Assembly (NCBI GenBank): GCA_934129895.1
Contig: CAKOWY010000001.1
Coordinates: 272,788 to 336,787, forward strand
Source: an uncultured Clostridia bacterium
GTDB lineage: Bacteria; Bacillota; Clostridia; TANB77; CAG-508
Reading direction: 5' to 3'
Length of the DNA: 64,000 bases
The position numbers were made by a program, and so were the translations under genes. Below, one piece after another: positions 14,636 through 41,042 of the stretch. Numbering within the stretch: the first letter of the stretch is position 1; every line of letters starts with the position of its first letter. Under the pieces are notes generated by a model that ran no database searches, had not been told where the DNA came from, and saw only the letters and a list, made by a program, of their open reading frames with translations.

Positions 14636-15586
14636 TTATTTATTAGTAATTTCTTCTAATTCCAAAAGTTCATTCCATCTCTTATCAACTTCTTTTTGGA
14701 ATTCTTCTATCATCCACTCATTTCCAGGTTTAAACATGTGTTTAAAACGTTTTTGTGGACGTAAGAATTCTTCTACTGGTAATTTTTTTGCTGGTTTATA
14801 TGTTATATGATATTTTCCATCAACAACTTCATATAATGGCCAATAACATGTATCTGCAGCTAATTTATTGATTTTCATTAAATCTTCTGTTGCATATCCC
14901 CAACCTCTTGGACATGGTGCCATAACATTTAAAAATGCTGGTCCTTTTGTATAAATTGCTTTTTCAGATTTTTCATATAAATCTTTAAAATTTGTCATCG
15001 CAAGTGTTTGTGCAACATAAGGAATATGGTGATCTGCCATGATTTTTGTTAAATCTTTTCTTATTTGCATCTTTCCAGGAATAACTTTTCCTGCTGGTGA
15101 TGTTGTTGTGTCAGCAAATTTTGGAGTTGCTGATGATCTTTGAATTCCTGTGTTCATATATGCTCCATTATCATAACATACATAAACCATATCATGTCCT
15201 CTTTCCATTGCTCCTGATAAACTTTGTAAACCTATATCATAAGTTCCACCATCTCCACCAAATGCTATAAATTTTGTGTCTTTATCTTGTGGTAATTTTC
15301 CTTGTTTTTTTAAGGCTTTATATGCCGCTTCTGCACCAGAACATGTTGCACCAGCATTTTCAAATGCTGTGTGTATAAATGAATCTGTCCATGCTGTATA
15401 TGGATATATAAATGTTGATACTTCCATACATCCAGTTGCATTTGCTATAACAGCATGATCTTCTGGTTTTAATGCTCTTAATACCATTCTTGCTACTACT
15501 GGGGCTCCACATCCTGCACACATTCTGTGTCCTTCTGTGAATCTTGATGGCTTTTCTGCCATTATCTTCTTTAAATCATAAGCCAT
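14636..15586 (-). CDS. 2-oxoacid:ferredoxin oxidoreductase beta subunit (TPP-binding; PorB/VorB-like)
   Basis: The TPP-binding signature GDGG is present. It shows the Cys cluster CAGCGAP and is typical of POR/VOR beta subunits. Confidence 0.8.
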   Translation of the reverse strand: MAYDLKKIMAEKPSRFTEGHRMCAGCGAPVVARMVLRALKPEDHAVIANATGCMEVSTFIYPYTAWTDSFIHTAFENAGATCSGAEAAYKALKKQGKLPQDKDTKFIAFGGDGGTYDIGLQSLSGAMERGHDMVYVCYDNGAYMNTGIQRSSATPKFADTTTSPAGKVIPGKMQIRKDLTKIMADHHIPYVAQTLAMTNFKDLYEKSEKAIYTKGPAFLNVMAPCPRGWGYATEDLMKINKLAADTCYWPLYEVVDGKYHITYKPAKKLPVEEFLRPQKRFKHMFKPGNEWMIEEFQKEVDKRWNELLELEEITNK

Positions 15587-15587
15587 T

Positions 15588-16778
15588 TTATTCTTCCCCC
15601 TTTCTTAGTCCTAAATATCTATATGGATTTCCTGTCTCTCCTGTTTTTACTATTTCTTGTAAATCTTTATATACAGATTCTATTTGCATTGTTGTTGTAT
15701 CTCTTCCACCAATTCCATAAATATAATTTACCATTGGTACTTGTTTTTTATTAACATACATTGCTGATGTTACATCTTCAAATAATGCTCCACCTGCTGC
15801 ATTTAATGAATCTGCTTTATCAAGTATTGCTACTGCTTTTAATCCTTGTAATGCTTCTGCAATTTCTTCTGCTGGGAATGGTCTAAACATTCTTAATTTT
15901 AATAATCCTGCTTTTACACCTTTTTCTCTTAATTCATCAACAACTGCTTTTGTTGTTCCTGCTGTTGAATTCATACATACTATTGCTATTTCTGCATCAT
16001 CTAATTTATATTTTTCAAAGAATTCATATTTTCTTCCTGTCCATTTTTCAAATTCTTCTGCAACTTCTTTTATTACTTTTTTAGCATTTTTCATTGCTTC
16101 TGCTTGTTGAGCCTTATGTTCAAATAAATATGCTTGCAAATCTAATGGTCCAATTGCTATTGGCTCTTTATCATTTAATAAATAATGTTCTGGTTTATAT
16201 TGTCCAACAAATTTCTTTACTTCTTCATCATTTTCTAATTCAATATTTTCAATTGAATGTGATGTAATAAATCCATCTTGGCATACCATTACTGGTAATT
16301 GAACATCTTTATGTTCTGCAATTCTATGTGCCATTAACATATTATCATAAGCTTCTTGGTTATTTTCTGAAAATAACATTATCCATCCAGCATCTCTTAC
16401 TCCCATTGCATCTGAATGATCATTATGGATATTTAATGGTCCTGAAACTGCTCTATTTACTAATGCCATTACTATTGGTAATCTTAAACTTGATGCTATA
16501 TATATCATTTCCCACATTAATGATAATCCGTTTGCAGATGTAGCTGTCATTGCTCTTGCTCCAGCAGCTTCTGCACCAATTGTTGCAGACATTGCACTAT
16601 GTTCACTTTCAACTGCAACAAATTCTGTATCTACTTCTCCATTTGATACAAATGTTGAAAAATATTGTGGTATTTCTGTAGATGGTGTAATTGGGAATGC
16701 TGCAACTACATCTGGATTTATTTGTTTCATTGCTATTGCTGTTGCTTCATTTCCGCTTAATCTTTCTCTTATACTCAT
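15588..16778 (-). CDS. 2-oxoacid:ferredoxin oxidoreductase alpha subunit (PorA/VorA-like)
   Basis: It has the pyruvate-flavodoxin/ferredoxin oxidoreductase N-terminal domain. Only a 1-nt gap separates it from the beta-subunit gene. Confidence 0.8.
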   Translation of the reverse strand: MSIRERLSGNEATAIAMKQINPDVVAAFPITPSTEIPQYFSTFVSNGEVDTEFVAVESEHSAMSATIGAEAAGARAMTATSANGLSLMWEMIYIASSLRLPIVMALVNRAVSGPLNIHNDHSDAMGVRDAGWIMLFSENNQEAYDNMLMAHRIAEHKDVQLPVMVCQDGFITSHSIENIELENDEEVKKFVGQYKPEHYLLNDKEPIAIGPLDLQAYLFEHKAQQAEAMKNAKKVIKEVAEEFEKWTGRKYEFFEKYKLDDAEIAIVCMNSTAGTTKAVVDELREKGVKAGLLKLRMFRPFPAEEIAEALQGLKAVAILDKADSLNAAGGALFEDVTSAMYVNKKQVPMVNYIYGIGGRDTTTMQIESVYKDLQEIVKTGETGNPYRYLGLRKGEE

Positions 16779-16812
16779 TTTTTTATTTCCTTTCTAAATT
16801 TTGATTTTTTTA

Positions 16813-17103
16813 TTATTCAACTTTCATTTCTATTGCTTTAAATGGACATACTTGTGCACATACTCCACATCCTTTACAATAGTCAAAATCTGTTTCTGTT
16901 CTTTTACAATCTTTTCCTACTGGTATTGAATTATCTGGACATACTGCAAAACATAATCCACATTGTTTACACTTTTCTTCATACCATACAGGTTTCATAC
17001 TTCTCCAGTCACCTGTTTTAAATTCTCTTGCATTTCCTGCACAATATATGTTTCCACCAATTGTTAAGTCTTTCATTGGTGTTTCTTTGTTTATTTCTGT
17101 CAT
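16813..17103 (-). CDS. 2-oxoacid:ferredoxin oxidoreductase delta subunit (2x[4Fe-4S] ferredoxin)
   Basis: It carries two CxxCxxCxxxCP motifs (CKQCGLCFAVCP and CKGCGVCAQVCP). Confidence 0.8.
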   Translation of the reverse strand: MTEINKETPMKDLTIGGNIYCAGNAREFKTGDWRSMKPVWYEEKCKQCGLCFAVCPDNSIPVGKDCKRTETDFDYCKGCGVCAQVCPFKAIEMKVE

Positions 17104-17125
17104 CTTTCAGCCCTCCTTTTTTATT

Positions 17126-17707
17126 TTATTGGATTTTTGTTACTTCTTTTAATGCTAATTCTAATGCTTTCATATTTCCTTCTATAACTTCTGGCTTTTT
17201 AGCAAATTTGTGTTTGAATGAACCTTTCATATCTTCTAAAAATGCTTCATCACTCATTATTCCTGTTACTTTTACAATTGCTGCAAGCATTGGTGTATTA
17301 GGAAAATATTTTCCTAATGTTTCTTCTGACACTTTTCTTGCATCTATTGTATAAATATTTCCATCATATCCATTTAATTTTTCTTTTAAATATTCTGGTG
17401 ATTTTGTAGTATTTATTACTATTGCTCCTTCTTTTTTTAGCCCTGCAGTTACTGGTACACTTTCTAGTAATGTATCGTCTACAACTACTACATAATTTGG
17501 CTCATATATATTACTATGTATTGTTATTGGTTTATCACTTATTCTATTATAGGCTGTTATTGGTGCTCCCATTCTTTCTGGTCCATATTCTGGAAATCCT
17601 TGAATGTATTTTCCTGTATTAAATGCTGCATCAGCAAGTAATAATGATGCTGTTTTTGCTCCTTGTCCGCCTCTACCATGCCATCTAATTTCTATTAAAT
17701 TGTTCAT
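17126..17707 (-). CDS. 2-oxoacid:ferredoxin oxidoreductase gamma subunit
   Basis: It has the POR gamma-subunit family pattern (IRWHGRGGQG...ITAYNRIS), and an AGGAGG RBS is present. Confidence 0.8.
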   Translation of the reverse strand: MNNLIEIRWHGRGGQGAKTASLLLADAAFNTGKYIQGFPEYGPERMGAPITAYNRISDKPITIHSNIYEPNYVVVVDDTLLESVPVTAGLKKEGAIVINTTKSPEYLKEKLNGYDGNIYTIDARKVSEETLGKYFPNTPMLAAIVKVTGIMSDEAFLEDMKGSFKHKFAKKPEVIEGNMKALELALKEVTKIQ

Positions 17708-17894: not shown

Positions 17895-18539
17895 TTATTG
17901 TAATGCTTTTATTTCTTCTCTTAATTCTGCTATTCTCCCTTTTCTACTTTTTATTTGTTCACTTATCCTTTCTATTTCAACCATAAAACAAACTTCATCT
18001 TGTGAGCTTTCGTAAAATTCTGCGTTTTTTTCAAAGAATATGTCTATAACTCTTCCTATATTTAAATCTTTTAAACCGTTATCATATACTAATCCACGTA
18101 CATTAGAATATTCAACCAACTGATAAAAAAAACAATATTTAGGTCCTTTGCACCTCTTTTTTAAGTATTGTTTGTCACAACCTACATTTTTTTTACCATA
18201 ATCACATTTTATTTCTTCTATGTTTATATATAAATCTAATGGATTACATATACGTGAATTTTTTCGCAAAACTTCGTCAAGAGATAATCTCATACTTGTT
18301 ATTCCTTCTTGCATTCCACAAGGAGGAATTAATAAAAGTTCCTGTTTATTTTCTTCATCTGCCAATCTCCATTCTATACTGCCATTTGTTTCCGGACATT
18401 TTAATTCCAAATTTTTATGTTGCTTTAAAATTTCATATAAACTTATCCTTGGCTCAATTTTAGAACAAAACGGACATAGAAAACTAGATATATCAAATGC
18501 CCTTATGAATACTCTTTCTGAATTAAGAATATCATTCAT
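17895..18539 (-). CDS. hypothetical Cys-rich protein with C-terminal coiled coil (paralogue of the next gene)
   Basis: MNDILNSERVFIRAFDISSFLCPFCSKI... is followed by further Cys pairs and a C-terminal RIAELREEIKALQ segment. It has an AAAGAGGA RBS, and its ATG overlaps the upstream gene's stop by 8 nt. Confidence 0.6.
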   Translation of the reverse strand: MNDILNSERVFIRAFDISSFLCPFCSKIEPRISLYEILKQHKNLELKCPETNGSIEWRLADEENKQELLLIPPCGMQEGITSMRLSLDEVLRKNSRICNPLDLYINIEEIKCDYGKKNVGCDKQYLKKRCKGPKYCFFYQLVEYSNVRGLVYDNGLKDLNIGRVIDIFFEKNAEFYESSQDEVCFMVEIERISEQIKSRKGRIAELREEIKALQ

Positions 18540-19341
18540 TATCTGAATCCTCTTTCATAAATATGATATTTCTCTTACTCGAATATTTTTTCATAGGTTG
18601 TATTATTGGTTGTTCTGTAGGAACTTTATCTTTTTGACTTTGATTAGATACCTTCTTTCTTTTGGTCGAAGTTGATGACTTTTTACTTTTTGGGCTTTTA
18701 GCAACACTAGTTTTTTGAATCTCCTCTTTTTGAACTTGTTTAGACTCATCTACTTGTGAATTGATCTTTTCTTTTTCTTGAGCTTCCTTTTTTAATATTG
18801 CTAATTGACTCTCTAATTCTTGTTCTTCTATCTTTAATCTTTCTTCCTCTTTTCTTAATCTTTCAAGATAAAAAGTAGTTGAACATTGTTTATATTCTTC
18901 TGGATCAAATTCAAATGCCAATTGTATTGTTCTTGGTGATTTACAATACTTTCGATTTGCACAATTGTATTTATCACATTTTAAAGCTTTAGGAATAAGA
19001 TATACTCTTGGTTCATCTGGTGCTTCTTTGATATCATATCCAGATTGATATACTGATAAACAACAATTTTTAAAGCAAATTTTTGCATAAATACATGGCA
19101 AAAATAAGCCTGCTCCTTCTGAATAAGCTAATTTTATTACTAGATAAACTCCAGCTTCATACTCCTCCTCTGAAATTTCATCACAACTCAAATAAATTTT
19201 AAATTCATTGTAACGATCTGAAATATAACGTGAACTGTACTGCCCTTCAATTGAACTTATTCTTGAATTCCAATCATGCCATTTTCCACAGTAAGGACAT
19301 AAAAATCGCTTGATTTTGCAATTCAATAAACTTATATTCAT
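18532..19341 (-). CDS. hypothetical Cys-rich protein with coiled coil and Lys/Ser-rich tail (paralogue of the previous gene)
   Basis: It most likely starts at the ATG at 19339-19341 (MNISLLNCKIKRFLCPYCGKW), which has a GGAGG RBS. The track start at 19407 is a TTG. It shares with its neighbour the MN..L....FLCP(Y/F)C(G/S)K N-terminus and the same domain order. Confidence 0.6.
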   Translation of the reverse strand: MNISLLNCKIKRFLCPYCGKWHDWNSRISSIEGQYSSRYISDRYNEFKIYLSCDEISEEEYEAGVYLVIKLAYSEGAGLFLPCIYAKICFKNCCLSVYQSGYDIKEAPDEPRVYLIPKALKCDKYNCANRKYCKSPRTIQLAFEFDPEEYKQCSTTFYLERLRKEEERLKIEEQELESQLAILKKEAQEKEKINSQVDESKQVQKEEIQKTSVAKSPKSKKSSTSTKRKKVSNQSQKDKVPTEQPIIQPMKKYSSKRNIIFMKEDSDNE

Positions 19342-19515
19342 TCTGCTTCCTCCATAACTAATATTTCTCATTTGTAAAGTATCATCTAAGCTACTTATCT
19401 CAGACAATTCTTACATTTTTTCAGCGCATGTTATATTACAATTTTGATATTTTGCAAATCTATTATGTTTATTCAAAAAATAAAGATAAGTTATAAAACT
19501 TTTGATTTTACTAAC

Positions 19516-20556
19516 TTATCTACTTTCATCTTTTTTTCCCATATTTTCTAATCTTTGTATCCAATGTTGATTTTCATCTTCCATCTGTATTCCAATTTTA
19601 AATGCTTCTTCTTCATCTCTAATTAAATCACTAGGATTATCTTTCTTTTTACTACAATTAAAACTATTATACATTTCTATAGCTAAACTTTTTAAATCTC
19701 CATATTGATTATTTTTATATTTTAAATGTTTTATATTTTCTCTTACATCTTCAAAAAGACATCTACTAGTATTTGTATGCTCTCTTTTGGTATATACTAA
19801 AAATTCAAATTCTGCTACACTAGATTTTTTAGATATTTTTAATCCTGTTTGATATATATGAAGAATGAAATTGGCTATACCTAAAAATTGTTGTATAGGT
19901 ATTATTTTTGAACTTGAATAAAATCTATATACATTTTTTTTATTTCTTCCATTAGCTTCTATTGTTCTAACAGCTATTATTGAAATATTCCTTCCTTTTT
20001 CTATAACTATTCCATCTTTACAAATATCCATAGGTCCTGATTTTCTTATCAAACTTGATACTTTGTTATTTGAAAATTCAAATTGCGTAACATATTTTTT
20101 TGATTCTAAAACAATATGCCCTATTTCATACCATAATCCATTACTAGAATAATCAAAAACGCTTTTTTTGCTATTTCCAAATGGAAGTGTTTGTATTGCT
20201 TTTTCAATTCTTTCTTCATTAACTTTCTTCCCAGATTCTTGAACTAACAGCATTTTTTCTAAATCTTCATCACTTAGTTTTTGTCCTAGAACTTTTTCTA
20301 AAATAGCACTATATATTTCAAGTTTTCTATTTAATACTTCATTCTTTTTAGCTAGTGCCCTAATTCTTGCTATTTCTAAATTTCTCTCATCAATTGATGC
20401 ATTTATTTCATTAATTTTTTGATTTATTTCTTGCTCCTTTTGTAGTGTTTCTTTTCTTACTTGTTCTTCCGCTTCTCTTCTCAACCTTTCAGAAATCGTC
20501 TCTTCACTTGACACTTGTTTAGAATCTACTTCAGGATAAATTGTTCTTTTTTTCAT
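19516..20556 (-). CDS. hypothetical protein (N-terminal coiled coil, unknown C-domain)
   Basis: An AAAGAGG RBS precedes the ATG. It lies 11 nt downstream of the previous gene's stop. I recognise no domain in it. Confidence 0.55.
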   Translation of the reverse strand: MKKRTIYPEVDSKQVSSEETISERLRREAEEQVRKETLQKEQEINQKINEINASIDERNLEIARIRALAKKNEVLNRKLEIYSAILEKVLGQKLSDEDLEKMLLVQESGKKVNEERIEKAIQTLPFGNSKKSVFDYSSNGLWYEIGHIVLESKKYVTQFEFSNNKVSSLIRKSGPMDICKDGIVIEKGRNISIIAVRTIEANGRNKKNVYRFYSSSKIIPIQQFLGIANFILHIYQTGLKISKKSSVAEFEFLVYTKREHTNTSRCLFEDVRENIKHLKYKNNQYGDLKSLAIEMYNSFNCSKKKDNPSDLIRDEEEAFKIGIQMEDENQHWIQRLENMGKKDESR

Positions 20557-20567
20557 TTTTTACCTCT

Positions 20568-21203
20568 TTATTCCAATTCCATATATTCTGATTCTTCTTC
20601 TTCAATAACTTCCATTAATTGCTCTGACCAAAATTCTAATTCTCCTATATAATAATTTAATATTTTCTCCATAAGCTGCACATTAATTGTATTATAATGT
20701 TTTTGAATTAATTGTTGTATTTGATTAGCTTTTTCTGTTGTTATCGGATATTTTGATAAAAAGTCTACATCATATTCATTTAAAATACGATTTCGTAATA
20801 AATTCACTCTTTCAAACATATCATAATAAATTCCACACTTGTTTCCACATTCTAAATAATACACTATAGTGTCTATAGTCCATCTATTTCTAAGTAATGC
20901 CACAATTGTTCTTTCAGAAGACATTTCATGAGTAAATTTTTTTAATTCTTCCAAAACTTCTGAATTTTTTTCACCATAAGCTTGACTTAATTTATTTTTT
21001 ATTTTTAATTTTGACTTTTTTTTGGCTATCTTCTTTCTATATTTAGCAATTTCTTTTATGAAATCTAAATATTCTCTTGTTTGCTCTTGATCAATATGTT
21101 TTGAAATTGTGTCAACAACTCCTTTTATAATTGCATCATTTTCTGCTAAGATTTTTTCCTCATTTTCAATCTTTTCTTGACTTTCTTTTGATATGCGCTT
21201 CAT
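20568..21203 (-). CDS. hypothetical protein
   Basis: The ORF has a charged N-terminus. The ATG at 21201-21203 has a GAGGGG RBS, so the track start at 21218 is probably over-extended. Confidence 0.5.
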   Translation of the reverse strand: MKRISKESQEKIENEEKILAENDAIIKGVVDTISKHIDQEQTREYLDFIKEIAKYRKKIAKKKSKLKIKNKLSQAYGEKNSEVLEELKKFTHEMSSERTIVALLRNRWTIDTIVYYLECGNKCGIYYDMFERVNLLRNRILNEYDVDFLSKYPITTEKANQIQQLIQKHYNTINVQLMEKILNYYIGELEFWSEQLMEVIEEEESEYMELE

Positions 21204-21332
21204 TTTTGCCCCTCTCATATTTTTAACATAATATCTCTCCAGTTATTTAATTCTTCGTTTATGATTCTATATACATTTATTATTTGAATATTTATATTCT
21301 TATTCATTACAATTTCTGTATTTGTGACTTTT

Positions 21333-21518
21333 TTATTTTGATATGCATATTTTAACATTCCGCTTTGCTCTTAATTCATTTTGAATTTGTTTTATTTCTT
21401 GAAAATCTTCTTTTGTCATTTGTAATATTTCTTTATTAGACATATATTGTGATAATATTTCTATTTTTTCTATATAACCTAAAATTTTTTTATAATTGTT
21501 TATATTTTCTTTTTCCAT
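21333..21518 (-). CDS. small hypothetical protein (61 aa)
   Basis: It is a short ORF with a weak RBS, co-oriented at the head of the hypothetical-protein array. Confidence 0.3.
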   Translation of the reverse strand: MEKENINNYKKILGYIEKIEILSQYMSNKEILQMTKEDFQEIKQIQNELRAKRNVKICISK

Positions 21519-21609
21519 TATTAAAATCTCTTTCCATAATTTTTTATTTTAGGCTTAATTGCCAGCTCAAAAGTAACATAATTATATAACAATAATATAA
21601 AATTGTCAA

Positions 21610-21654: not shown

Positions 21655-22614
21655 TTAGTCTAACGTATCTGCCTGTACGATATTAGCAGGTGTAAAATAT
21701 CTTGCAAATAAATTTCCACCTACTTCATATCCACCCATAGTTGCGTTTATTGCATTAAATTGTAACTCTCTCGAAGCCAGAGATTCAATGATAAAAATTA
21801 CATTTTCAGAAATTAACTTCATTATCATCTCCAATGTCTGAATTGTAAGGGGATTTGTACTAGTACAAATAACAAATACAAACTTAGTATTTGCACTGTA
21901 AAATCTTTGCATTTTTCCAATGATTTTTTTGAATGTTTCGTTCCTTTGACTTCGCATAGATATTGTATAGAGTCTTTTAAGTCCACTCTCCCAATAATTC
22001 ATATATTCATCACTGGGATCACTATAAAGCTCTTGAAGATATGTTAAAATCTCCCTTGCCTCATATTCTATATAACTATCTCTATAATATCCTACATGAT
22101 ATCTATCATCTTTTTCTATCTCATTCATTATAGTTGCTGCAATAAGATTATAGATATCATGTCCAGTGTTTGCAATGTCAACTCGATTGAATAAGACAAC
22201 ATCCTGATTTCTAATATCATATAAGGTTCTATCTACCAGGATATCGGCATTCATTCCAAATACCCCAATCAAACCAGTATTACATTTAGGTCTGTTTATG
22301 AGTGGCTGTACTTTAGCTGTAAGCTGATTTGATCTTCTTGCCGTTCTATCAGAACTTTCTACAGCTCTTGATGCAGTCATGGGAACTACTTCAGAATTTT
22401 CCCTTTGATTTCTGAAATCTTCTGATGATTGTTCATTTCTCCTCTCTTCTCTAGTTGCATAATTACTATTTTCCTGATAACTTTGATAAGATTCAGCATA
22501 ACTGTCTTGTCTTCTTGCTTCGTTTCTTATCTCAGTTTCTTCCTTTTTTGGACTATTTTGAGCAGTAATTTTCTGCCCAGTTTGTTCAAAATATATTTGG
22601 CGCCGTCTTGCCAT
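21655..22614 (-). CDS. hypothetical protein, last gene of island operon (about 100-aa polar disordered N-terminus + uncharacterised C-domain)
   Basis: Its ATG overlaps the upstream TAA (TAATG), and an AAAGGAG RBS is present. The N-terminus is rich in Q/E/R/S/N (QNSPKKEETEIRNEARRQDSYAESYQSYQENSNY...). The C-domain (GLIGVFGMNADILV...KFVFVICTSTNPL) is unassigned. Confidence 0.7.
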   Translation of the reverse strand: MARRRQIYFEQTGQKITAQNSPKKEETEIRNEARRQDSYAESYQSYQENSNYATREERRNEQSSEDFRNQRENSEVVPMTASRAVESSDRTARRSNQLTAKVQPLINRPKCNTGLIGVFGMNADILVDRTLYDIRNQDVVLFNRVDIANTGHDIYNLIAATIMNEIEKDDRYHVGYYRDSYIEYEAREILTYLQELYSDPSDEYMNYWESGLKRLYTISMRSQRNETFKKIIGKMQRFYSANTKFVFVICTSTNPLTIQTLEMIMKLISENVIFIIESLASRELQFNAINATMGGYEVGGNLFARYFTPANIVQADTLD

Positions 22615-24020
22615 TATTTTCTCCTTTCACATTGTGATAAGGAATTTTTCTCCAATAACAAACTCTTTGCCCTGTTTTTCACAGGATCTTTAAATTCGCC
22701 TCTTTCTATTATCTCATAAAACCATCTTTTTGCATCAGCCGTGTAAACATCCAGTACTTTTTTGGCTCTTTCTTGCTCGAATTGACTTCTTGCATTAGTA
22801 ATAACCAATATAACTTTTTCAAATTCTTTAACATACTGGAGTTTTTCTGCAGTATCTGTTCCTGCAATAAAAGCATGTTTTTGACGATAGCTTGCTTTTA
22901 TAATATTTTTAGGAAATTGCATTAAGGCATGACATGCCAAAAAATATTCTCCTAAAATACTTCCTTCAGTCATTTCTCTTTCAGGAGCAGGATAACATGT
23001 TGCAGAAAATATTTGTTCAATTGTCCTCATTCTCCTTTGCTTTACAGTTGCCTCAATCTGATTTGGAAGTTCTGCTGCTTTAGTTCCCTCTACAGGTTCA
23101 TAACTTGCAACTCCAATATCACTGAAATATCCTTTTTCGAGATATTGAACCAAACCTCTAAATTCAGATTCCGTTTCTCCAGGATATCCAACAATTACTT
23201 CTGTTGAAATAATCAAATCAGGACGCAGTCTTTTTAAAGCATTTATCTTTTTATCCACATCTTCAAATAGTGGACGATTCATGCTTTTTAAGATACTTGG
23301 TGAACTATGCTGTATATGCAACATAATTTCAACAATGTTTGCGTTTTGTCCAATGAGTTCAATCACTTCATCAGTTAAACCTGCCGGATGAAACCAACCA
23401 ATAACATATCTGCAATCAGGATAGCCTTTTACAATTCTTGTCATCAGTTCAGCAAATTTTCTTTTTCCATACAAATCAACACCATAATCAGATGTTTCTT
23501 GTGCACCTGTAATATAAATAGTCGATTCGCTTGGATACATATTGCTAACTTCTTGCAAAATGTCTTGCATGCTTTTACTATGATATTCACCATAAAATTG
23601 AGGATAAACACAATAAGAGCATCTATGATTACAACCAGTCGAAATAATAACTTTGTTTTGTGGAATCCATTGAACATTAATATTGGGTTTATTGAACTTT
23701 GCAAGTACTTCTTCAAAAGATTTTACCTTAATTGGTGCTTCTTCTTTTAACTCTTTCAGTTCTTCTTTGCAAAGTCTTTCCAAACACCCTGTAACGATAA
23801 CTTCAGCATCTTTTTTCTTATTAATGCAAACATCTGCAATAACCTGCATAGAATACAGCTTATTAGGACCAAAAGCACAGGTAAGAATGATTATACAATC
23901 AGCAATCGTATAATCATTTACTACTTCATACCCAACAGTACTTTTAACCCGATTTACCAGTTGATTTGCATTATCAATGTCCATGTGCATGTCATTACAG
24001 AGAATTACCGCAACTTTCAT
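22614..24020 (-). CDS. radical SAM methylthiotransferase-like enzyme (MiaB/RimO/MtaB-type architecture)
   Basis: The N-terminal MTTase-type domain has three Cys (ILCND, ILTCAF, VTGCLERLC). The radical-SAM CxxxCxxC motif is CNHRCSYC. A C-terminal extension of more than 100 aa follows. The ATG overlaps the upstream TAA, and a GGAGG RBS is present. Confidence 0.8.
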   Translation of the reverse strand: MKVAVILCNDMHMDIDNANQLVNRVKSTVGYEVVNDYTIADCIIILTCAFGPNKLYSMQVIADVCINKKKDAEVIVTGCLERLCKEELKELKEEAPIKVKSFEEVLAKFNKPNINVQWIPQNKVIISTGCNHRCSYCVYPQFYGEYHSKSMQDILQEVSNMYPSESTIYITGAQETSDYGVDLYGKRKFAELMTRIVKGYPDCRYVIGWFHPAGLTDEVIELIGQNANIVEIMLHIQHSSPSILKSMNRPLFEDVDKKINALKRLRPDLIISTEVIVGYPGETESEFRGLVQYLEKGYFSDIGVASYEPVEGTKAAELPNQIEATVKQRRMRTIEQIFSATCYPAPEREMTEGSILGEYFLACHALMQFPKNIIKASYRQKHAFIAGTDTAEKLQYVKEFEKVILVITNARSQFEQERAKKVLDVYTADAKRWFYEIIERGEFKDPVKNRAKSLLLEKNSLSQCERRK

Positions 24021-24604
24021 TAATATCCTCCTTCACGCACTTTCGTACGAGAATCTGTAGTTTTGGATTTTGTTTTGGTTTCCTGCTGATATTCTTTGGT
24101 GAACTCTCGATTTGCAACTTTACCAAGTGCATTTTCAAGTGCAAGATATTTTTCACATTTCTTGCCTTTGAGCCCTTTGGGTTCAAACTTTACTTCACCA
24201 TCTTCAGATACAGATACCATCATAAATCCACCACTAGAATCCTGGGGATCTCTAACCTTGTAGCTACCTCCTTCTTGTTTGCTCACACTCAAATGCATCT
24301 TTTTGGCAGTCTTTTTCATCATCTCAATCGCATAATTGCTCATGATTATCGAACCATTATAGCCAATATATCTGGTAACATGACCGTCCCAAAAATCAGC
24401 CGTAATGTTATAATTGCCTGTCATGCTCTTTTCAAGTGCACAATCATATATTCCTGGAAGTTTTACTACATTCTCCTTTAACTGTGCACCTCCATAAAAC
24501 CGACACATTCCTTCGTCAACCATGTTAAGTCCCATGTTCGCCAAAGCTGATCTTGCACACTCCAAATCTCGGATCTCGGTATAAATAGTTGTAAAATGAC
24601 TCAT
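24020..24604 (-). CDS. Ycf35/DUF1257-like protein with Lys/Thr/Glu-rich C-terminal tail
   Basis: The N-terminus MSHFTTIYTEIRDLECARSALANMGLNM matches, from recollection, the MSHF..I.T.I.D...L..AL.DLG start of plastid/cyanobacterial Ycf35 (DUF1257). A TAATG overlap and GGAGG RBS are present. Confidence 0.65.
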   Translation of the reverse strand: MSHFTTIYTEIRDLECARSALANMGLNMVDEGMCRFYGGAQLKENVVKLPGIYDCALEKSMTGNYNITADFWDGHVTRYIGYNGSIIMSNYAIEMMKKTAKKMHLSVSKQEGGSYKVRDPQDSSGGFMMVSVSEDGEVKFEPKGLKGKKCEKYLALENALGKVANREFTKEYQQETKTKSKTTDSRTKVREGGY

Positions 24605-26244
24605 TACTGATTTCCTCCTTCAAAATTGATTGTTCGACCAGTCTTTTTCTTTTTATTAGTAGTGCTTCCTTTGCTTTCTGCACTATCATCTGAATGAATA
24701 TTAGCCCAACGAATATTTTCTTTTTGTGCCCATTCTGTTAATGCTTCTACGGTTTCTTTCATGATTCCTTTAGATGCTGGTTGAAGTACTTCCATCTGAT
24801 TTAAAATATCGTTTGTATTCAATTCTCTTGCATTATCTGCAAAGGAATTAAACATTGCCGATATCACGGCTTCTTCGATTTCTGCACCTGTGAAACCATC
24901 AGATACCTCAGCCAATTTTTCAACATCAAAGCTTTGAGCATTACGCCCTTTCTTTTCAAGTTGAATACTTACAATTTCTTCTCTTTCTTTTAAATTAGGA
25001 AGACCGACAAAAAAGATTTCATCAAATCGTCCTTTTCTCAAAAGTTCAGGTGGAAGAGATGTAATATTATTGGCAGTTGCAATAACATAAACTGCAGATT
25101 CTTTTTCCTGCATCCATGTAAGAATACTTGCAAACATACGGGAAGATACTCCAGAATCGTTTCTACCACCTGCTCCAGCACCAGCTAAACCTTTTTCAAT
25201 CTCATCAATCCACAACACACAAGGTGACATGGCTTCTGCCGTCTGAAGGGCTTTTCTGGTATTGGCTTCTGTATCACCAACATAGCTTCCAAAAAGTTTT
25301 CCAAGATCACATTTAATGAGCGGAACACTCCAAGTATTTGCCAATGCTTTGGCTGCCAAGCTCTTTCCGCATCCAGGAATACCTACAAGCAATACTCCCT
25401 TAGGGTTAGGTAAACCATATTTTTTTGCCTTATCTGAATATGCCAGAATACGCTTCTGGGTATATTCCTTAAAGTTTTGCATTCCTCCCACTTTAGTAGA
25501 ATCATGATTGTTCCAAAACTCAAGCAAACCATCTTTACAAATTATTTGTGCCTTAACTTCCGAAACAATCTCTAAATCAAGAGCCCGCTTTTTTGAAAAA
25601 GACGTTGATATTGCATTTTCAGCCTGATTTAACGTCAATCCCAGTAAAATCTCTGCTGCCTTTTCTGTTATAGACGAAATCTTTTCAAGTTCACTTGCCT
25701 TCAAATTGTCCTTGAATCTTTCAACCATATCATTAATGAGCTCTACAAAATCTTCTTTTTTAGGGAGCTCTAAATCAATGGAAACTGTAGATTCTTCCCA
25801 ATCTTTAGGCACGTCAAATTGATTGCTAATAAAGATAAAACAACATCCAATTTCATTTGCTTTTTCAAATGCTTCTTTTGCTGCTCGCAAAACCAAAGGC
25901 TGATCAACAAAATGATGGAAATCAAGCATACATAAAATGTATTCTCCTTGCTCATCATTAAGTTTTAAGCCTTCAGTTAATGCTTCTTGAGGATCTGTGA
26001 CATCTGCGTTTTCTTCTACCAGGTAATAATCTTCCATGTCGATATAATTTTTGTCACCACGAATTTGGATTCTGGGATCAACAACCTCCATGATTCCCCT
26101 TGTACAAGACCAATAGTATACCCTTTTTTGATAATGCTGACCTGCTCTTAAACAATCTGCCAAGGCCCGGTTTTCTTCGGGTGTTTGCAGGATAACTGAT
26201 GAGTAACCTGCGCTGATACAACCAGAGATGGATAATTTACTCAT
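24604..26244 (-). CDS. Ycf46-family AAA+ ATPase
   Basis: It has Walker A (GIPGCGKS), Walker B (LWIDEIEK) and the Ycf46-like segments TWMQEKESAVYVIATANN and LLRKGRFDEIFFVGLP. The preferred start is the ATG at 26242-26244 (MSKLSISG), which has a GGAGG RBS. The track start at 26259 lacks an SD. Confidence 0.85.
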   Translation of the reverse strand: MSKLSISGCISAGYSSVILQTPEENRALADCLRAGQHYQKRVYYWSCTRGIMEVVDPRIQIRGDKNYIDMEDYYLVEENADVTDPQEALTEGLKLNDEQGEYILCMLDFHHFVDQPLVLRAAKEAFEKANEIGCCFIFISNQFDVPKDWEESTVSIDLELPKKEDFVELINDMVERFKDNLKASELEKISSITEKAAEILLGLTLNQAENAISTSFSKKRALDLEIVSEVKAQIICKDGLLEFWNNHDSTKVGGMQNFKEYTQKRILAYSDKAKKYGLPNPKGVLLVGIPGCGKSLAAKALANTWSVPLIKCDLGKLFGSYVGDTEANTRKALQTAEAMSPCVLWIDEIEKGLAGAGAGGRNDSGVSSRMFASILTWMQEKESAVYVIATANNITSLPPELLRKGRFDEIFFVGLPNLKEREEIVSIQLEKKGRNAQSFDVEKLAEVSDGFTGAEIEEAVISAMFNSFADNARELNTNDILNQMEVLQPASKGIMKETVEALTEWAQKENIRWANIHSDDSAESKGSTTNKKKKTGRTINFEGGNQ

Positions 26245-26333: not shown

Positions 26334-26362
26334 ATTATATCACATCCCTTAATTTATGTCAA
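26334..26362 (-). promoter_or_regulatory. consensus sigma-A promoter of the four-gene island operon
   Basis: On the minus strand it reads TTGACA (26357-26362) - 17 nt - TGATATAAT, with the -10 at 26334-26339. It is an extended -10 and lies about 85 nt upstream of the ATPase start. Confidence 0.5.
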
Positions 26363-26403: not shown

Positions 26404-26448
26404 CCAAAAAGAGAAGGCTACATATAATATGTATACTTCTCTTTTTGG
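26404..26448 (-). terminator. long hairpin after the 240-aa island gene
   Basis: Perfect 13-bp inverted repeat CCAAAAAGAGAAG...CTTCTCTTTTTGG enclosing a second palindrome TACATATAATATGTA. It sits 10 nt 3' of the stop at 26458, and the U-run on the minus strand is displaced by about 10 nt. Confidence 0.45.
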
Positions 26449-26457
26449 AAAATGAAT

Positions 26458-27180
26458 TTAAAATCTTATCGGACCATCTCCAGAATCAACAATGATTATA
26501 AAATCAGTAATCTTATGTTCTACAAACCATCTTAAAATCTCTCGACTTTGCTCATCCACCTTATAATATCCTAATGCACAAAAAACTTTTGTGTCATATT
26601 GTAAAAAGGCCTTTTTCAGTGATTGTATTGCTTCTTCTATATTTTTAGCTTCTTCTCCTATTACTCTCCTTTGATATCTTTCTTTATAACTCATAGGGTA
26701 TTGATAATGAAAACCTAGATTTTGTGCACAATATTGCAAATTATACCTTTGTTCAACGATTTCGATATACCTTAAACGTGAATATGCTGTATCTTCGCAC
26801 CTACTATACACTGATACTAAGCTTTCTGCAATACGCCAAAAGATATTGGAAAAAGATTCCATAGAGATAAAACCCAAGAATACTGTTTGCAAAGAAAAAA
26901 TAGAATTCGATATTCTGGCTGTACTATCTCTAAATTTTTTTATTTCAGAATAAGCATTTTCTCCGTAAACATTTATTATATTCGTCTTAGGATTCTCTTC
27001 TCTAAATAATTGTGTTGCCACTTTTTCGAACCCGCGATCTCTTACTAATTGAATCCCCTCGTTTCTTTGAACTTTAGAGTTTTCTTCATTTGGTTCTTCT
27101 TCACTTTTTAAAAATACAAATTCGCTATCTTTGCGTACCAAGATTTCTCCATTGTTTTCTGCATAAATTTTCCGTCTCAT
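26458..27180 (-). CDS. hypothetical protein (first gene of island, own promoter and terminator)
   Basis: The ATG at 27178-27180 (MRRKIYAENNGE) has a GGAGG RBS, whereas the track start at 27201 is a TTG. I recognise no domain; the C-terminus ends ...ITDFIIIVDSGDGPIRF. Confidence 0.65.
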   Translation of the reverse strand: MRRKIYAENNGEILVRKDSEFVFLKSEEEPNEENSKVQRNEGIQLVRDRGFEKVATQLFREENPKTNIINVYGENAYSEIKKFRDSTARISNSIFSLQTVFLGFISMESFSNIFWRIAESLVSVYSRCEDTAYSRLRYIEIVEQRYNLQYCAQNLGFHYQYPMSYKERYQRRVIGEEAKNIEEAIQSLKKAFLQYDTKVFCALGYYKVDEQSREILRWFVEHKITDFIIIVDSGDGPIRF

Positions 27181-27263
27181 ACTGTACCTCCATGTTGTCA
27201 ATTATTCATTTTTTACATTCTGTTGAACTGTTTCAGAATCGTTTTTAAACAAAACTTACGTGT

Positions 27264-27292
27264 ATTATATCATTTTTGCAATTTTATGTCAA
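27264..27292 (-). promoter_or_regulatory. consensus sigma-A promoter of the 240-aa island gene (near-duplicate of 26334-26362)
   Basis: It reads TTGACA (27287-27292) - 17 nt - TGATATAAT, with the -10 at 27264-27269. The surrounding sequence cgtgtattatatcat...ttatgtcaatt closely matches the operon promoter. Confidence 0.45.
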
Positions 27293-27300
27293 TTAATCTT

Positions 27301-27801
27301 TTATATTATTGCTGATGAGACATGATATATTGTACATTTTTCTTTTAATAATCTTTTTGCTTCTCTTAATACTTTTTGTTCATCATCTAATAATATTGAA
27401 TGTGTATAACTTTCTTCCCTTTTTTTGATATTTTCCCCTTTTATTATATCTCTATTTTGTGATGAATAATCTCCTATCTCTTTCGTTAAAATTATCCAAT
27501 TATCTTCTTTTATAAATGGTACATATTTTTTTAACCAATTCTTCTTTTCTTCTGTTATTTTATTTGTCTTAGATAATGATAGAATATACATATCAAGATT
27601 CTTTATATTTGACAATTCTTTTAAATTTTGTATTACACATTTTAAAGGTTCAAATTCTTTATATTCTTTTCCCATTTTTTCAGCAATCTCATTTGATTCA
27701 TATATATGATATTCAACTATTGTTCCATCCATATCAATATACATAGCAACTTTTTCATTTGCTTCACATATCTTTTTAACTTTTTCTATAAAATTACTCA
27801 T
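27301..27801 (-). CDS. HAD-superfamily 5'(3')-deoxyribonucleotidase-like protein
   Basis: The HAD motif I is DxDGT-like (MYIDMDGTIVEY) and the length is about 166 aa, as in NT5C-type nucleotidases. An AAAGAGG RBS is present, and the GC content is host-like. Confidence 0.6.
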   Translation of the reverse strand: MSNFIEKVKKICEANEKVAMYIDMDGTIVEYHIYESNEIAEKMGKEYKEFEPLKCVIQNLKELSNIKNLDMYILSLSKTNKITEEKKNWLKKYVPFIKEDNWIILTKEIGDYSSQNRDIIKGENIKKREESYTHSILLDDEQKVLREAKRLLKEKCTIYHVSSAII

Positions 27802-28127: not shown

Positions 28128-29114
28128 TTATTTCATATCTAAATTATCTAATGCTTTACCTGTTCCAAGCGCAACACATGATACTGCATCATCTGCAATC
28201 ATAACATTTATTCCTGTTTTTTCTTGTAATAATTTATCTAATCCATCAATTAGACATCCTCCACCAGTCATATATATTCCTCTATCACTAATATCTGCTG
28301 ATAACTCAGGTGGTGTTTTTTCTAATACTGAATGTACAGCTTCAACTATCTGCATAGCTGGTTCTATAAGTGCCTCTAGCATTTCGCTAGAATATACTAC
28401 AACATTTTTTGGTAATCCTGTTGTTAAATCTCTTCCTCTAATTTCCATGTCTATATCCTTTTCTTTTGGATATACACAACCAATGTTAATTTTCAAGTCT
28501 TCAGCTGTTCTTTCACCTATCATAATATTATGTTTCTTTTTTATATATTTTACTATTGATTCGTCAAACTTATCTCCAGCAACTTTTATTGATGTACTTT
28601 CTACAGAACCTCCTAATGATATTACTGCAATATCTGTAGTTCCTCCACCAATATCAACTACCATGTTTCCACAAGGTTTTGCAATATCTATACCAGCTCC
28701 AATAGCTGCTGCAATTGGCTCTTCTATTAAAAATACTTTTCTTGCTCCTGCTTGTGTAGCTGCATCTATTACTGCTTTTTTTTCAACTTCAGTAACTCTT
28801 GATGGAATACATATCATTGTTCTTGGTGCAAATATTGATTTTCCATTAACTTTATTTATAAAATATTTCAACATTTTTTCTGTTACTGTATAGTCTGATA
28901 TAACCCCTTCTCTTAATGGTCTTGTTGCTACAATATTACCTGGAGTTCTTCCTAACATTCTTCTTGCTTCTTGCCCAACAGCAAGTACCTCTTTTGTATT
29001 ACTATTTACAGCAACTACAGATGGTTCTCTTAATACTACACCTTTTCCTTTTATATACGCAATTACTGTTGCTGTTCCCAAATCAATTCCTATATCTTGC
29101 CCAAAACCAAACAT
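28128..29114 (-). CDS. mreB: rod shape-determining actin homologue MreB/Mbl family
   Basis: GIDLGTATVIAYIKGKGVVLREPSVVAV together with the actin-fold phosphate loops DIGGGTTD identify it. Confidence 0.85.
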   Translation of the reverse strand: MFGFGQDIGIDLGTATVIAYIKGKGVVLREPSVVAVNSNTKEVLAVGQEARRMLGRTPGNIVATRPLREGVISDYTVTEKMLKYFINKVNGKSIFAPRTMICIPSRVTEVEKKAVIDAATQAGARKVFLIEEPIAAAIGAGIDIAKPCGNMVVDIGGGTTDIAVISLGGSVESTSIKVAGDKFDESIVKYIKKKHNIMIGERTAEDLKINIGCVYPKEKDIDMEIRGRDLTTGLPKNVVVYSSEMLEALIEPAMQIVEAVHSVLEKTPPELSADISDRGIYMTGGGCLIDGLDKLLQEKTGINVMIADDAVSCVALGTGKALDNLDMK

Positions 29115-39509: not shown

Positions 39510-41042
39510 TTATTGTACAAAATATGTTATTATTTTTAAAATTGGTATAATGTTAAATAATAAATAAATTGAAAAATATTTTAATTCAATATTTTTTATT
39601 TTTATACTATTTTCTTTTAAGCACATTGCTAATAAGAACAATATATATACTGGAATAAAATATCTTCCTTGTACTCCAGCTATTATTCTAGCACCAACTG
39701 GTGAAAATGTTAAATATAAACCTGTCAATATTAATGCGATTAATATTAGTCCAATAATAATCATTATTATTTTTTGATATTTATCTAAAGTTTTTTTAGT
39801 TTCTTCAAAAAATGGTGTTATAAATAATCCAAAAGTCATTGGAATAATATATAAAGCTGGTATTGATACTTCTAATAGACCTAATGCATTTCCTGTAAAT
39901 CCAAATAAATATGATTCGCCATTAATTTCTAATGATTTTATAAATACTTTAATATAATTAATTGGATTTTTTATTATATATTTTAATTGTTCTATTGCTT
40001 GAACGTTATTTACTATTATATATTCTCTTAAATCAACATATTTTTGTGAAAATACAAACCATCCAACTGATGCACCAATTGATGTAAGTATTGATATTAA
40101 TATTAGTTTGATTTTTTTATTTTTACTTATATTTTTATTTTTTATTAGCAATAAACTCATAAATGTTAGTGGAAAATATACATATTTGCATACAGATAAA
40201 CTCAAAGCTATTATATAATATATTAACCTTTGTTTTAATGTTAAATCACTTTCTTGATACATTAATTTTAAATTATATGATATAAATAATATTGCTAACA
40301 TATTTATAAAAGCATCTGCAGATAATGAACATGCTTGTTGCATTATCATTGGTAAAAACATATAAATTCCAAGCATTAATTTTCCAAATGGTATCATTTT
40401 TATTGAATAATATCCTACTAATATAAATAATATAAAATTTACTAATCTAATTATATAACACATTAGAATTATATTTATATTAAACATTCTTCCTACAAAA
40501 AATCCAATTGCTCCTGTTAAATAATTTATTGGAAAATATGTTTTTGTTATTGTATCAACACTTACTAAATTCTGATAATCTGTTTTTTCTGCCATTAAAT
40601 ATCTACATGCATCAAATTTATTCCAAGATTGAGCTAATTTTAACAATTGCTCTGGTACATATATTTCACCTTTGTTTTCTTCTCCAAGTGGTGTTATAAA
40701 ATTCCCACATGAAAAGTCATAAGCTCTAAATATATGTGCTTCTTCATCAGGAACTTTTACTAAAGGTACTAAAATTGCATACATCATTCCTATTGGTATT
40801 ATGCAAGTTACAAATAATTTAGCAATATCTTTTTTATATTTAACAAAATTATATATTATTATTCCAACTAATAATATAATAAAAATTCCACTCATTACTA
40901 ATGATATTTTAGAAATACTTCCATTTTTATGCTCTGTTTGCAAACTAAATATTGTAACTGCTAATATTAATGCAATTATAAATTCAATTATTGAATTTGA
41001 TTTATTCCAAATTTTATCTTTGTTTTCTTTTAACCAATCCAT
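39510..41042 (-). CDS. polytopic membrane protein (DUF2142-like, GT-C-like candidate)
   Basis: The 510-aa multi-TM protein has a conserved extracytoplasmic acidic motif (KVPDEEAHIFRAYDFSCG) after TM3. Confidence 0.6.
   Translation of the reverse strand: MDWLKENKDKIWNKSNSIIEFIIALILAVTIFSLQTEHKNGSISKISLVMSGIFIILLVGIIIYNFVKYKKDIAKLFVTCIIPIGMMYAILVPLVKVPDEEAHIFRAYDFSCGNFITPLGEENKGEIYVPEQLLKLAQSWNKFDACRYLMAEKTDYQNLVSVDTITKTYFPINYLTGAIGFFVGRMFNINIILMCYIIRLVNFILFILVGYYSIKMIPFGKLMLGIYMFLPMIMQQACSLSADAFINMLAILFISYNLKLMYQESDLTLKQRLIYYIIALSLSVCKYVYFPLTFMSLLLIKNKNISKNKKIKLILISILTSIGASVGWFVFSQKYVDLREYIIVNNVQAIEQLKYIIKNPINYIKVFIKSLEINGESYLFGFTGNALGLLEVSIPALYIIPMTFGLFITPFFEETKKTLDKYQKIIMIIIGLILIALILTGLYLTFSPVGARIIAGVQGRYFIPVYILFLLAMCLKENSIKIKNIELKYFSIYLLFNIIPILKIITYFVQ

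Follow-up and report, generated by a model that had tools for sequence, protein, structure and literature searches.

A fast-evolving protein with a predicted P-loop ATPase fold and a shared terminal peptide in an AAA and radical-SAM gene cassette of Clostridia

We focus here on a gene in a window of 64,000 nucleotides from an uncultured Clostridia bacterium (assembly GCA_934129895.1, contig CAKOWY010000001.1; all positions are those of the window unless a locus is named). The gene, at 21655-22614 on the minus strand, encodes a protein of 319 residues, hereafter the target, and belongs to a conserved cassette with an AAA ATPase, a DUF1257/DUF2997 protein and a radical S-adenosylmethionine (SAM) enzyme. 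The target joins a short N-terminal peptide and a long polar linker to a C-terminal domain that is predicted to have the fold of a P-loop ATPase and is most likely non-catalytic. The explanation that we favour, with about even confidence, is that it is a non-catalytic subunit or adaptor tethered to the AAA machine through a docking peptide common to several cassette proteins. The N-terminal peptide RRQIYFE would then be the docking motif and the polar linker a flexible tether, and together they would hold the folded domain on a site shared with two further tagged proteins (g247 and g346), with the C-terminus of a third (g291) and with the tail of the AAA ATPase. This site would most probably lie on the AAA ATPase, to which the target would be an adaptor, a regulatory partner or a client; here we infer the docking role of the motif, the identity of its binder and the choice between adaptor and client.

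The open reading frame (ORF) in the initial annotation is exact, with an ATG start according to both the ORF list and the translation, and all three peptide stretches quoted there occur in the translated protein. In the sequence TAATG the start codon shares bases with the TAA stop of the preceding radical-SAM gene; the two genes are translationally coupled, and 8 nt before the ATG there is an AAGGAG ribosome-binding site. Against a relative of 62% identity, the ratio of nonsynonymous to synonymous substitution rates (dN/dS) is 0.32 overall, 0.27 in the C-domain and 0.54 in the N-region, and the gene is under purifying selection. Because of this ratio and of the conservation in about 35 cluster representatives, we regard the target as a real protein-coding gene and not a chance ORF.

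Searches of the Pfam, NCBIfam, PHROG and PADLOC models gave no match to the target, nor was there a sequence match in the Protein Data Bank (PDB), where two profile searches returned chance matches only; that no family could be assigned, as initially stated, therefore still stands. A word-indexed search with the target found two close clusters only, and an exhaustive HMMER search with a profile of the C-domain (E of 0.001 or better) found 35 cluster representatives with the same architecture, the match sitting in the C-terminal part of each. Nearly all members are of 225-325 residues, apart from two shorter partial entries, and no Pfam domain was found among them; almost nothing further came from word-indexed searches that used the radical-SAM C-domain or a widened profile of the family. 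The genome-derived members all come from Clostridia, Eubacteriales or Clostridiaceae metagenome-assembled genomes, and several metagenome contigs with members are labelled human gut or human metagenome. Cassette loci were located with degenerate DNA patterns, from which chance matches (most of those in genomes) were removed by the family hidden Markov model (HMM); in viral contigs all 25 pattern matches proved to be chance after this filter, leaving no family member, and a tblastn search of phage records with the target gave nothing. In the family alignment of 33 sequences (A3), F119 is invariant and R5, G117, G120, D124, R224 and L261 are at least 90% conserved. The family is conserved yet fast-evolving. 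A role as an iron-sulfur (Fe-S) or sulfur carrier was ruled out, since conserved cysteines are absent. The analysis defines a protein family without database annotation and gives it a predicted fold, a probable loss of catalysis and a fixed position in the cassette.

The N-terminal region was initially described as polar, disordered and of low complexity. Residues 1-100 are 59% Q, E, R, S or N and 11% hydrophobic, the corresponding figures for residues 101-319 being 29% and 34%, and the predicted local distance difference test score (pLDDT) of the AlphaFold model is below 50 for residues 1-73, which bears out both the polarity and the disorder; in the 62%-identical relative (P0002), residues 22-46 of the target are deleted. 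The region is not uniform, though, as it opens with a conserved tag that other cassette proteins have in common. The target begins MARRRQIYFEQ, its tag peptide being MARRRQIYFEQTGQ, and 31 of the 33 family members have the motif R-x-[IVL]-x-[F/Y/R], the polar linker behind it typically measuring about 60-100 residues (the region ahead of the first strand has a median length of 87 and a range of 30-127). The RR-x-I-Y-F start suggested a twin-arginine translocation (Tat) signal peptide, which was ruled out because the tag precedes about 70-100 polar residues and no hydrophobic stretch.

The C-terminal domain was modelled by AlphaFold from the 33 sequences, with a mean pLDDT of 77 and values above 90 for most of residues 90-320; this run replaced one with three close sequences only, whose pLDDT was 43.6. 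The predicted core consists of five strand-helix units (strands at residues 115-119, 139-141, 244-252, 272-278 and 312-314), strands 2 and 3 being separated by a helical insertion (residues 154-238), and the model ends right after strand 5, leaving no lid domain. A Foldseek search of the PDB placed RdrA of the RADAR system at ranks 1-6 (E 3e-5, probability 1.0), followed, in a selection from ranks 7-50, by the weaker matches ORC2 (chains at ranks 7-15), NLR NB-ARC, MalT, CED-4, ClpX, TRIP13 and RFC. All top matches are AAA+/STAND P-loop cores, and the C-domain is thus read as an AAA+/STAND-type P-loop nucleoside triphosphatase (NTPase) core. Judged by features other than the strand order, namely its three alpha/beta layers and the loop between strand 1 and helix 1, the model is consistent with an additional-strand catalytic glutamate (ASCE) core. 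The globular alpha/beta domain proposed initially is therefore upheld and its Rossmann-like character is not, the structure prediction giving instead a P-loop core with a lysine-less Walker-A position. A receiver-like (flavodoxin) fold was ruled out, as no such protein occurs in the top 50 Foldseek matches, and Rossmann proteins are also absent near the top. A search of a viral structure library with the target model returned nothing.

How far the closest structural match can be taken is another matter. The target and RdrA (PDB 8hra and 8fnt) share the AAA+/STAND-type alpha/beta core with a template modelling (TM) score of 0.46, normalised on the full 319 residues of the target with the disordered third included, and their sequence identity is 9-12%. 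RdrA has about 800-900 residues and is paired with the deaminase RdrB, whereas in the target about 210 residues form the core alone, lacking the Walker-A lysine and the lid; the cassette contains no deaminase domain, and PADLOC gave only generic AAA matches for it.

Several features of the C-domain speak to its catalytic state. First of all, the most conserved motif of the family, h-I-G-V-F-G-m-N-S-D, occupies the place of the Walker A at the junction of strand 1 and helix 1, but the canonical GxxxxGK[ST] is missing and no K or R occurs in the loop in any of the aligned members (33/33). Second, the acidic Walker-B residue expected at the end of strand 3 is Cys250 in the target and D or E, S or Q across the family. 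Third, there is no profile match to PF00004 and its relatives and no lid domain, so that the target does not qualify as an AAA+ ATPase. The lysine-less loop and the variable Walker B thus make a non-catalytic pseudo-ATPase the most likely reading of the modelled C-domain. We consider it very unlikely that the domain is an active NTPase, or a nucleotide sensor, with an unconventional phosphate-binding loop. The element G-x-F-G-x-N-S-D is the most conserved of the family, D124 and R224 are nearly invariant and many members keep the acidic Walker-B residue and a sensor-1 Ser, all of which would suit such a loop; the absence of the Walker-A lysine from every member, the Cys of the target and the Ser or Gln of others at the Walker-B position, the missing lid and a paralogue in the same cassette (g247) without the Asp equivalent to D124 argue for lost catalysis instead. 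ORC2 and the clamp-loader subunit delta have an ATPase fold without working catalytic motifs and serve active AAA+ subunits as structural or regulatory partners. The target resembles such inactive subunits in having the fold without the working motifs; it differs in showing no sequence relationship to them and in lacking a lid or winged-helix domain, and nothing indicates that it enters a ring. In our current understanding the target would be a pseudo-enzyme of P-loop fold, partnered with an AAA machine and standing outside every named family.

The cassette of the window is transcribed from the minus strand in the order g247, AAA, DUF1257/DUF2997, radical-SAM, target, g61, g216, g346, g291 and g214. 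The 12 genome or assembly loci L004, L009, L011, L018, L021, L033, L047, L048, L051, L058, L059 and L087 preserve the order AAA, DUF, radical-SAM and target, with a member of the target family behind the radical-SAM gene; three others (L013, L061 and L139) instead have their family member upstream of the AAA gene. Metagenome contigs were scanned for the pattern CNDMHMD, which is specific to this radical-SAM subfamily and gave 25 loci; in all of those with DNA 3' of the radical-SAM gene (16/16) a family member follows it directly. In every homologous cassette examined the ORF is present and intact behind the radical-SAM gene, in agreement with the membership in an operon that was initially proposed. 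The cassette is not described in the literature searched, where queries on DUF2997/DUF1257, on Ycf46 with radical SAM and on methylthiotransferase with AAA+ and anti-phage returned nothing relevant, and as a whole it may be a new kind of system.

The partners differ in their rate of change. Relatives are 47-63% identical to the window proteins for the AAA ATPase, 47-62% for the radical-SAM enzyme, 33-59% for DUF1257/DUF2997 and 21-35% for the target (figures that leave out the two closest relatives, L004 and L001, and loci with small gene fragments), the target evolving about twice as fast as its AAA and radical-SAM partners. Extra target paralogues occur in L021, L058, L059, L051 and L010, and the accessory genes vary by lineage: a g61/g216/g346 set, homologues of g291 and g214 (which in some lineages directly overlap the target homologue), a pair of proteins B and C, or a protein of about 420 residues. 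Compared with each other, these accessory families are unrelated except for g291 and g214. In L010 (497-4672) we also observe a tandem duplication of a three-gene module made up of the pseudo-ATPase, a tagged protein B of about 245 residues and a protein C of about 148 residues, in which 3 of the 6 proteins begin (G)RKIRI.

Fast evolution, duplicating paralogues and lineage-varying accessory genes are also what one might see if the target were the sensor, specificity subunit or effector of an anti-phage defence system, as yet undescribed, with the AAA ATPase at its centre, and the structural likeness to the RADAR ATPase and then to STAND/NLR cores, together with weak IetA-like matches of the AAA protein, points the same way. 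We nevertheless hold this to be quite unlikely. Neither the target nor the radical-SAM enzyme nor the DUF protein is matched by a PADLOC model; the PADLOC IetA match to the cassette AAA spans its AAA module only, the NCBIfam IteA model scores it at 100.5 bits, far under the cut-off of 510, and the IetS protease is absent. The dN/dS values (0.27-0.54) give no sign of positive selection, and no nuclease, protease, NADase, pore or transmembrane feature was found. The suggestion in the initial annotation of an effector likewise gained no ground, the target showing no catalytic, toxin or membrane feature; the other role suggested there, that of a substrate, may apply. Finally, the cassette is flanked by housekeeping genes that change from one lineage to the next, namely mreB and pyruvate:ferredoxin oxidoreductase genes in the window (28128-29114 and 14636-17707) and elsewhere FtsZ, RecA, an AddA-like helicase, MetRS, AspRS and MnmA, by which a defence-island or prophage context was ruled out. 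The ftsZ flank is seen in L125-type loci (L125 9881-10867) and recA in L138 (11054-12112).

The principal new result concerns the terminal peptide. Copies of R-x-[IVL]-x-[F/Y/R] stand at the N-termini of the target (RRQIYFE), g247 (RRKIYAE) and g346 (KRTIYPE) and near the C-terminus of the AAA ATPase (GRTINFE) and of g291 (KRNIIFM); the radical-SAM enzyme has no copy at either terminus. From its first ATG, g247 begins MRRKIYAEN (likely start at 27180, tag at 27157-27177), and g346 begins MKKRTIYPEV. The AAA tail of the window reads ...KKKKTGRTINFEGGNQ, its peptide being KKTGRTINFEGGNQ, and R542 is invariant in the AAA alignment (A5). Translated in six frames, the window yields 128,000 residues, in which the pattern [RK][RK].IY.E has only four matches, three of which are the N-termini of the target, g247 and g346; the fourth (KKHIYLE, 40724-40744, minus) was dismissed as chance, being out of frame inside the gene of a 510-residue membrane protein. 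When tagged families that are otherwise unrelated are compared by BLAST, only their N-terminal 35 or so residues align, at 43-44% identity, and the top local hhalign matches between unrelated families also fall on the tag region.

The peptide takes lineage-specific forms, such as GRKIRI (3x in L010), YSGRKIR (2x in L013), MKIQRVIRF (2x in L021, L058 and L059) and NRIIRF (2x in L051), and in L125 the g291-family C-terminus KRRTLYFQ accompanies a target homologue with the tag KRRHLYIPG. The C-terminal tail of the AAA protein and the N-terminal tags co-vary from cassette to cassette: RVIRFE with RVIRFQ in L048, RGIRSQ with RRIRSQ and RKIRSV in L011, RQIRFK with RIIRFR and RIIRFH in L051, and RQIYTK with REIHFP, RQIIFP and RNIQFS in L135. 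Over 12 cassettes, tail and tags agree at 2.4 identical positions, against 1.75 +/- 0.17 after shuffling (permutation p about 1.5e-4). A terminal peptide that co-varies on five proteins, the AAA tail included, offers a testable handle on partner recognition by a widespread, unstudied AAA family that many phages also encode. SspB, a tethered adaptor of ClpX, consists of a folded domain, a long disordered linker and a short ClpX-binding peptide that is common to several partners. The target has a comparable layout, with a short basic and hydrophobic terminal peptide, a long flexible linker, a folded body and the peptide on several partners, and it is because of this likeness that we propose an adaptor or client subunit held by its tag. 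The two differ in fold and in the N-terminal position of the motif, of which the ATPase itself has a copy, and the cassette ATPase differs from ClpX in being a classical AAA protein without an associated protease.

Terminal peptides behind flexible linkers are also how cargo is loaded in encapsulin systems, and the tags might by analogy be cargo or assembly signals, in the style of encapsulins or microcompartments, that gather the tagged proteins into one structure. Several unrelated proteins of the cassette do have the motif at one end or the other, set off by a flexible linker, and several of the cassette proteins are untyped coiled-coil or Cys-rich ones. On the other hand, no shell-like family was detected in any cassette protein, the variation of the accessory genes by lineage leaves no universal shell candidate, and the ATPase itself bears the motif; we judge such a gathering role highly improbable.

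Relatives of the AAA ATPase outside the cassette bear on what binds the peptide. Full-length homologues are common in phages (106 phage records, phrog_8638), and three loci were inspected, in the Streptococcus satellite Javan368 (L008), Mycobacterium phage Bora (L014) and Rhodobacter phage RcKickapoo (L015). The phrog_8638 proteins of phages and of the Streptococcus satellite are like the cassette ATPase over their full length (1.6e-126), with a similar basic and hydrophobic peptide in their tails, but their loci are unlike the cassette: the three inspected lack both a radical-SAM gene and a member of the target family, and no DUF1257/DUF2997 neighbour could be detected in them. Two of these loci nevertheless have a neighbour that ends in a C-terminal peptide like the ATPase tail (TRKVLV with NRKIKI in Javan368, RAVRR with RVVVRR in RcKickapoo). 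Such peptides beside AAA homologues that have no radical-SAM gene point to the AAA protein, and away from the radical-SAM enzyme, as what binds the motif.

The same evidence has to be weighed against an unlikely alternative in which the target and the other motif proteins are substrates of the radical-SAM enzyme, the motif being a recognition or modification site read by the domain that replaces TRAM. Among the curated models, RimO, which modifies a protein, scores the enzyme best (208.8 bits, with MtaB at 156.7 and MiaB at 137.9). The enzyme has the domains of the MiaB/RimO group, a three-Cys UPF0004 and CxxxCxxC, and both Fe-S cysteine sets are conserved across the cassettes (C8, C48, C79 and CNHRCSYC). 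The RimO match is limited to enzyme residues 21-337 (model positions 19-356 of 432) and its score falls short of the cut-off of 357, as does that of another family model (205 against 251); the enzyme lies under all curated methylthiotransferase cut-offs and no TRAM was matched, its place being taken by a family-specific conserved C-terminal domain of about 130 residues. In favour of a substrate, too, are the constant place of the target gene behind that of the enzyme, its overlap with the enzyme's stop codon and the lack of the motif from the termini of the enzyme, unlike those of the AAA protein, with only a loose similarity in the DUF1257/DUF2997 C-terminus. The likeness to RimO and ribosomal protein S12 thus lies in a neighbouring enzyme that resembles RimO most and keeps both cluster motifs, so that the target could be its protein substrate; the difference lies in an enzyme under every cut-off and without TRAM and in a target without similarity to S12. 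Against modification of the motif proteins, the motif has no conserved Asp, the residue that RimO targets; the sole Asp of invariant type (D124) is missing in the paralogue g247; in phages and the satellite, where the AAA homologues come without a radical-SAM gene, similar terminal peptides stand next to those homologues; and it would be odd for the ATPase tail to be a substrate as well.

Several considerations weigh against the target as a tethered, non-catalytic partner of the AAA ATPase. The fold assignment rests on one predicted model and one structure search, and a profile comparison of the target with the AAA domain of the cassette shows no sequence similarity (homology between the two was ruled out, at an hhalign probability of 0.05%). 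A lysine-less loop with an invariant Asp could bind a ligand. The permutation statistic ignores the relatedness of the cassettes, its motif registers were chosen by eye, and the phage peptides, from two of three loci, are anecdotal. An enzyme-substrate pair would explain at least equally well why the target gene strictly adjoins the radical-SAM gene and is coupled to it in translation.

A broader proposal would combine both activities. The cassette would then be an undescribed protein-remodelling and modification machine of gut Clostridia, in which the AAA protein and the TRAM-less, RimO-like enzyme act on proteins wired together by the peptide and the target is a fast-evolving pseudo-ATPase that serves as substrate or specificity subunit; in its entirety this is speculative and, we believe, rather unlikely. 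Were the radical-SAM enzyme indeed to modify the motif proteins, protein methylthiolation would gain a new class in addition to that of ribosomal protein S12. The neighbouring methylthiotransferase-like enzyme has swapped its substrate-binding TRAM domain, and the scope of protein methylthiolation would widen if its substrate is a cassette protein.

Table 1. Positions of the target gene, its parts, the neighbouring genes and the expression signals in the 64,000-nucleotide window.
Feature	Position	Strand	Evidence or remark
Target gene	21655..22614	minus	N-terminal tag, disordered linker and putative pseudo-ATPase domain, 319 aa
N-terminal tag RRRQIYFE, residues 3-10	22585..22608	minus	One copy of R-x-[IVL]-x-[F/Y/R]
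Polar disordered linker, residues 11-80	22375..22584	minus	pLDDT <50, composition, indel in P0002
Long helix ahead of first strand, residues 81-107	22294..22374	minus	DSSP on AlphaFold model; pLDDT about 93 from residue 90
Lysine-less Walker-A-like loop G117-V-F-G-M-N-A-D124	22243..22266	minus	Junction of strand 115-119 and helix 123-134
Alpha/beta core, residues 108-319	21658..22293	minus	AlphaFold model me5bed812347a and Foldseek
Radical-SAM methylthiotransferase-like enzyme, 468 aa	22614..24020	minus	UPF0004 (PF00919) and Radical_SAM (PF04055)
DUF1257 (weak) and DUF2997 fusion, 194 aa	24020..24604	minus	PF11211 1.6e-10; PF06868 0.0024
AAA ATPase, 551 aa, N-domain of about 270 aa	24604..26259	minus	PF00004 1.4e-32; phrog_8638 1.6e-126
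Motif copy RTINFE in AAA C-terminal tail, residues 542-547	24619..24636	minus	Behind polar linker
g247, divergent target paralogue with the same tag	26458..27201	minus	Family HMM 22.7 bits, E 2.4e-8, whole domain aligned
g61	21333..21518	minus	No family
g216	20568..21218	minus	No family
g346, coiled-coil, unrelated to target, N-terminal tag KRTIYPE (20530-20550)	19516..20556	minus	No family
g291, Cys-rich	18532..19407	minus	C-terminal KRNIIFM (18556-18576) behind K/S-rich linker
g214, last gene of the cassette	17895..18539	minus	g291 paralogue in N-terminal Cys motif; hhalign 86%, 27 columns
Intrinsic terminator right behind target stop codon	21620..21649	minus	13-bp stem and T-run
Promoter TTGACA-17-TATAAT of unit g61-g216-g346-g291-g214	21581..21609	minus	Perfect, 12/12 match
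Sigma-70-type promoter TTGACA-17-TATAAT of unit AAA-DUF-radical-SAM-target	26334..26362	minus	Perfect, 12/12 match
Promoter TTGACA-17-TATAAT of g247	27264..27292	minus	Perfect, 12/12 match
Strong hairpin, then U-rich run, right after g247 stop codon	26404..26448	minus	-22.7 kcal/mol, z = -6.1

The promoters before g247, the AAA gene and g61 split the cassette into three transcription units. The target had been taken for a terminal gene, and with the terminator at 21649-21620 it is indeed the last of its own unit; it is not the last of the cassette, five linked genes lying beyond it. The three perfect promoters fall within 6 kb, and in the rest of the 10.7-kb region promoter-like sites are no commoner than in shuffled sequence. 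The hairpin at 26404-26448 is probably the terminator of g247; Rfam gave only a sub-threshold miRNA-like match to it, and an Rfam scan of 17-28.5 kb found no riboswitch or known RNA. The G+C content is 0.34-0.37 over the AAA, DUF and radical-SAM genes (window 22000-26000) and about 0.26 in the surrounding 64 kb, which could reflect a horizontal origin or simply stronger protein constraint.

Of the remaining genes, the DUF1257/DUF2997 protein is found in all cassettes, and its C-terminus has an aromatic end motif that varies with the lineage (REGGY, RVGGY or KLGGY in window-like cassettes, LKEWS or LTEWS elsewhere), the basic part of which is loosely like the shared peptide. No Pfam match was found for the accessory families. 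Homologues of g61 and g216 lie downstream of the target homologue in L001, L047, L135 and L140, and those of g346 in L001, L135 and L140 are tagged too. A homologue of g291 directly follows the target homologue in L009/L125-type cassettes, g214 being syntenic in the L125 type. Proteins g291 and g214 have similar FLCP[YF]C N-termini and coiled-coil tails, and in the 98%-identical relative L004 (8890-10101) each is split in two ORFs, by frameshifts or assembly errors. Just upstream of the cassette, a 166-residue HAD/NT5C-like protein with a weak 5'-nucleotidase match is encoded at 27301-27801 on the minus strand, and its gene accompanies the cassette in no relatives other than the near-identical L004 and L136.

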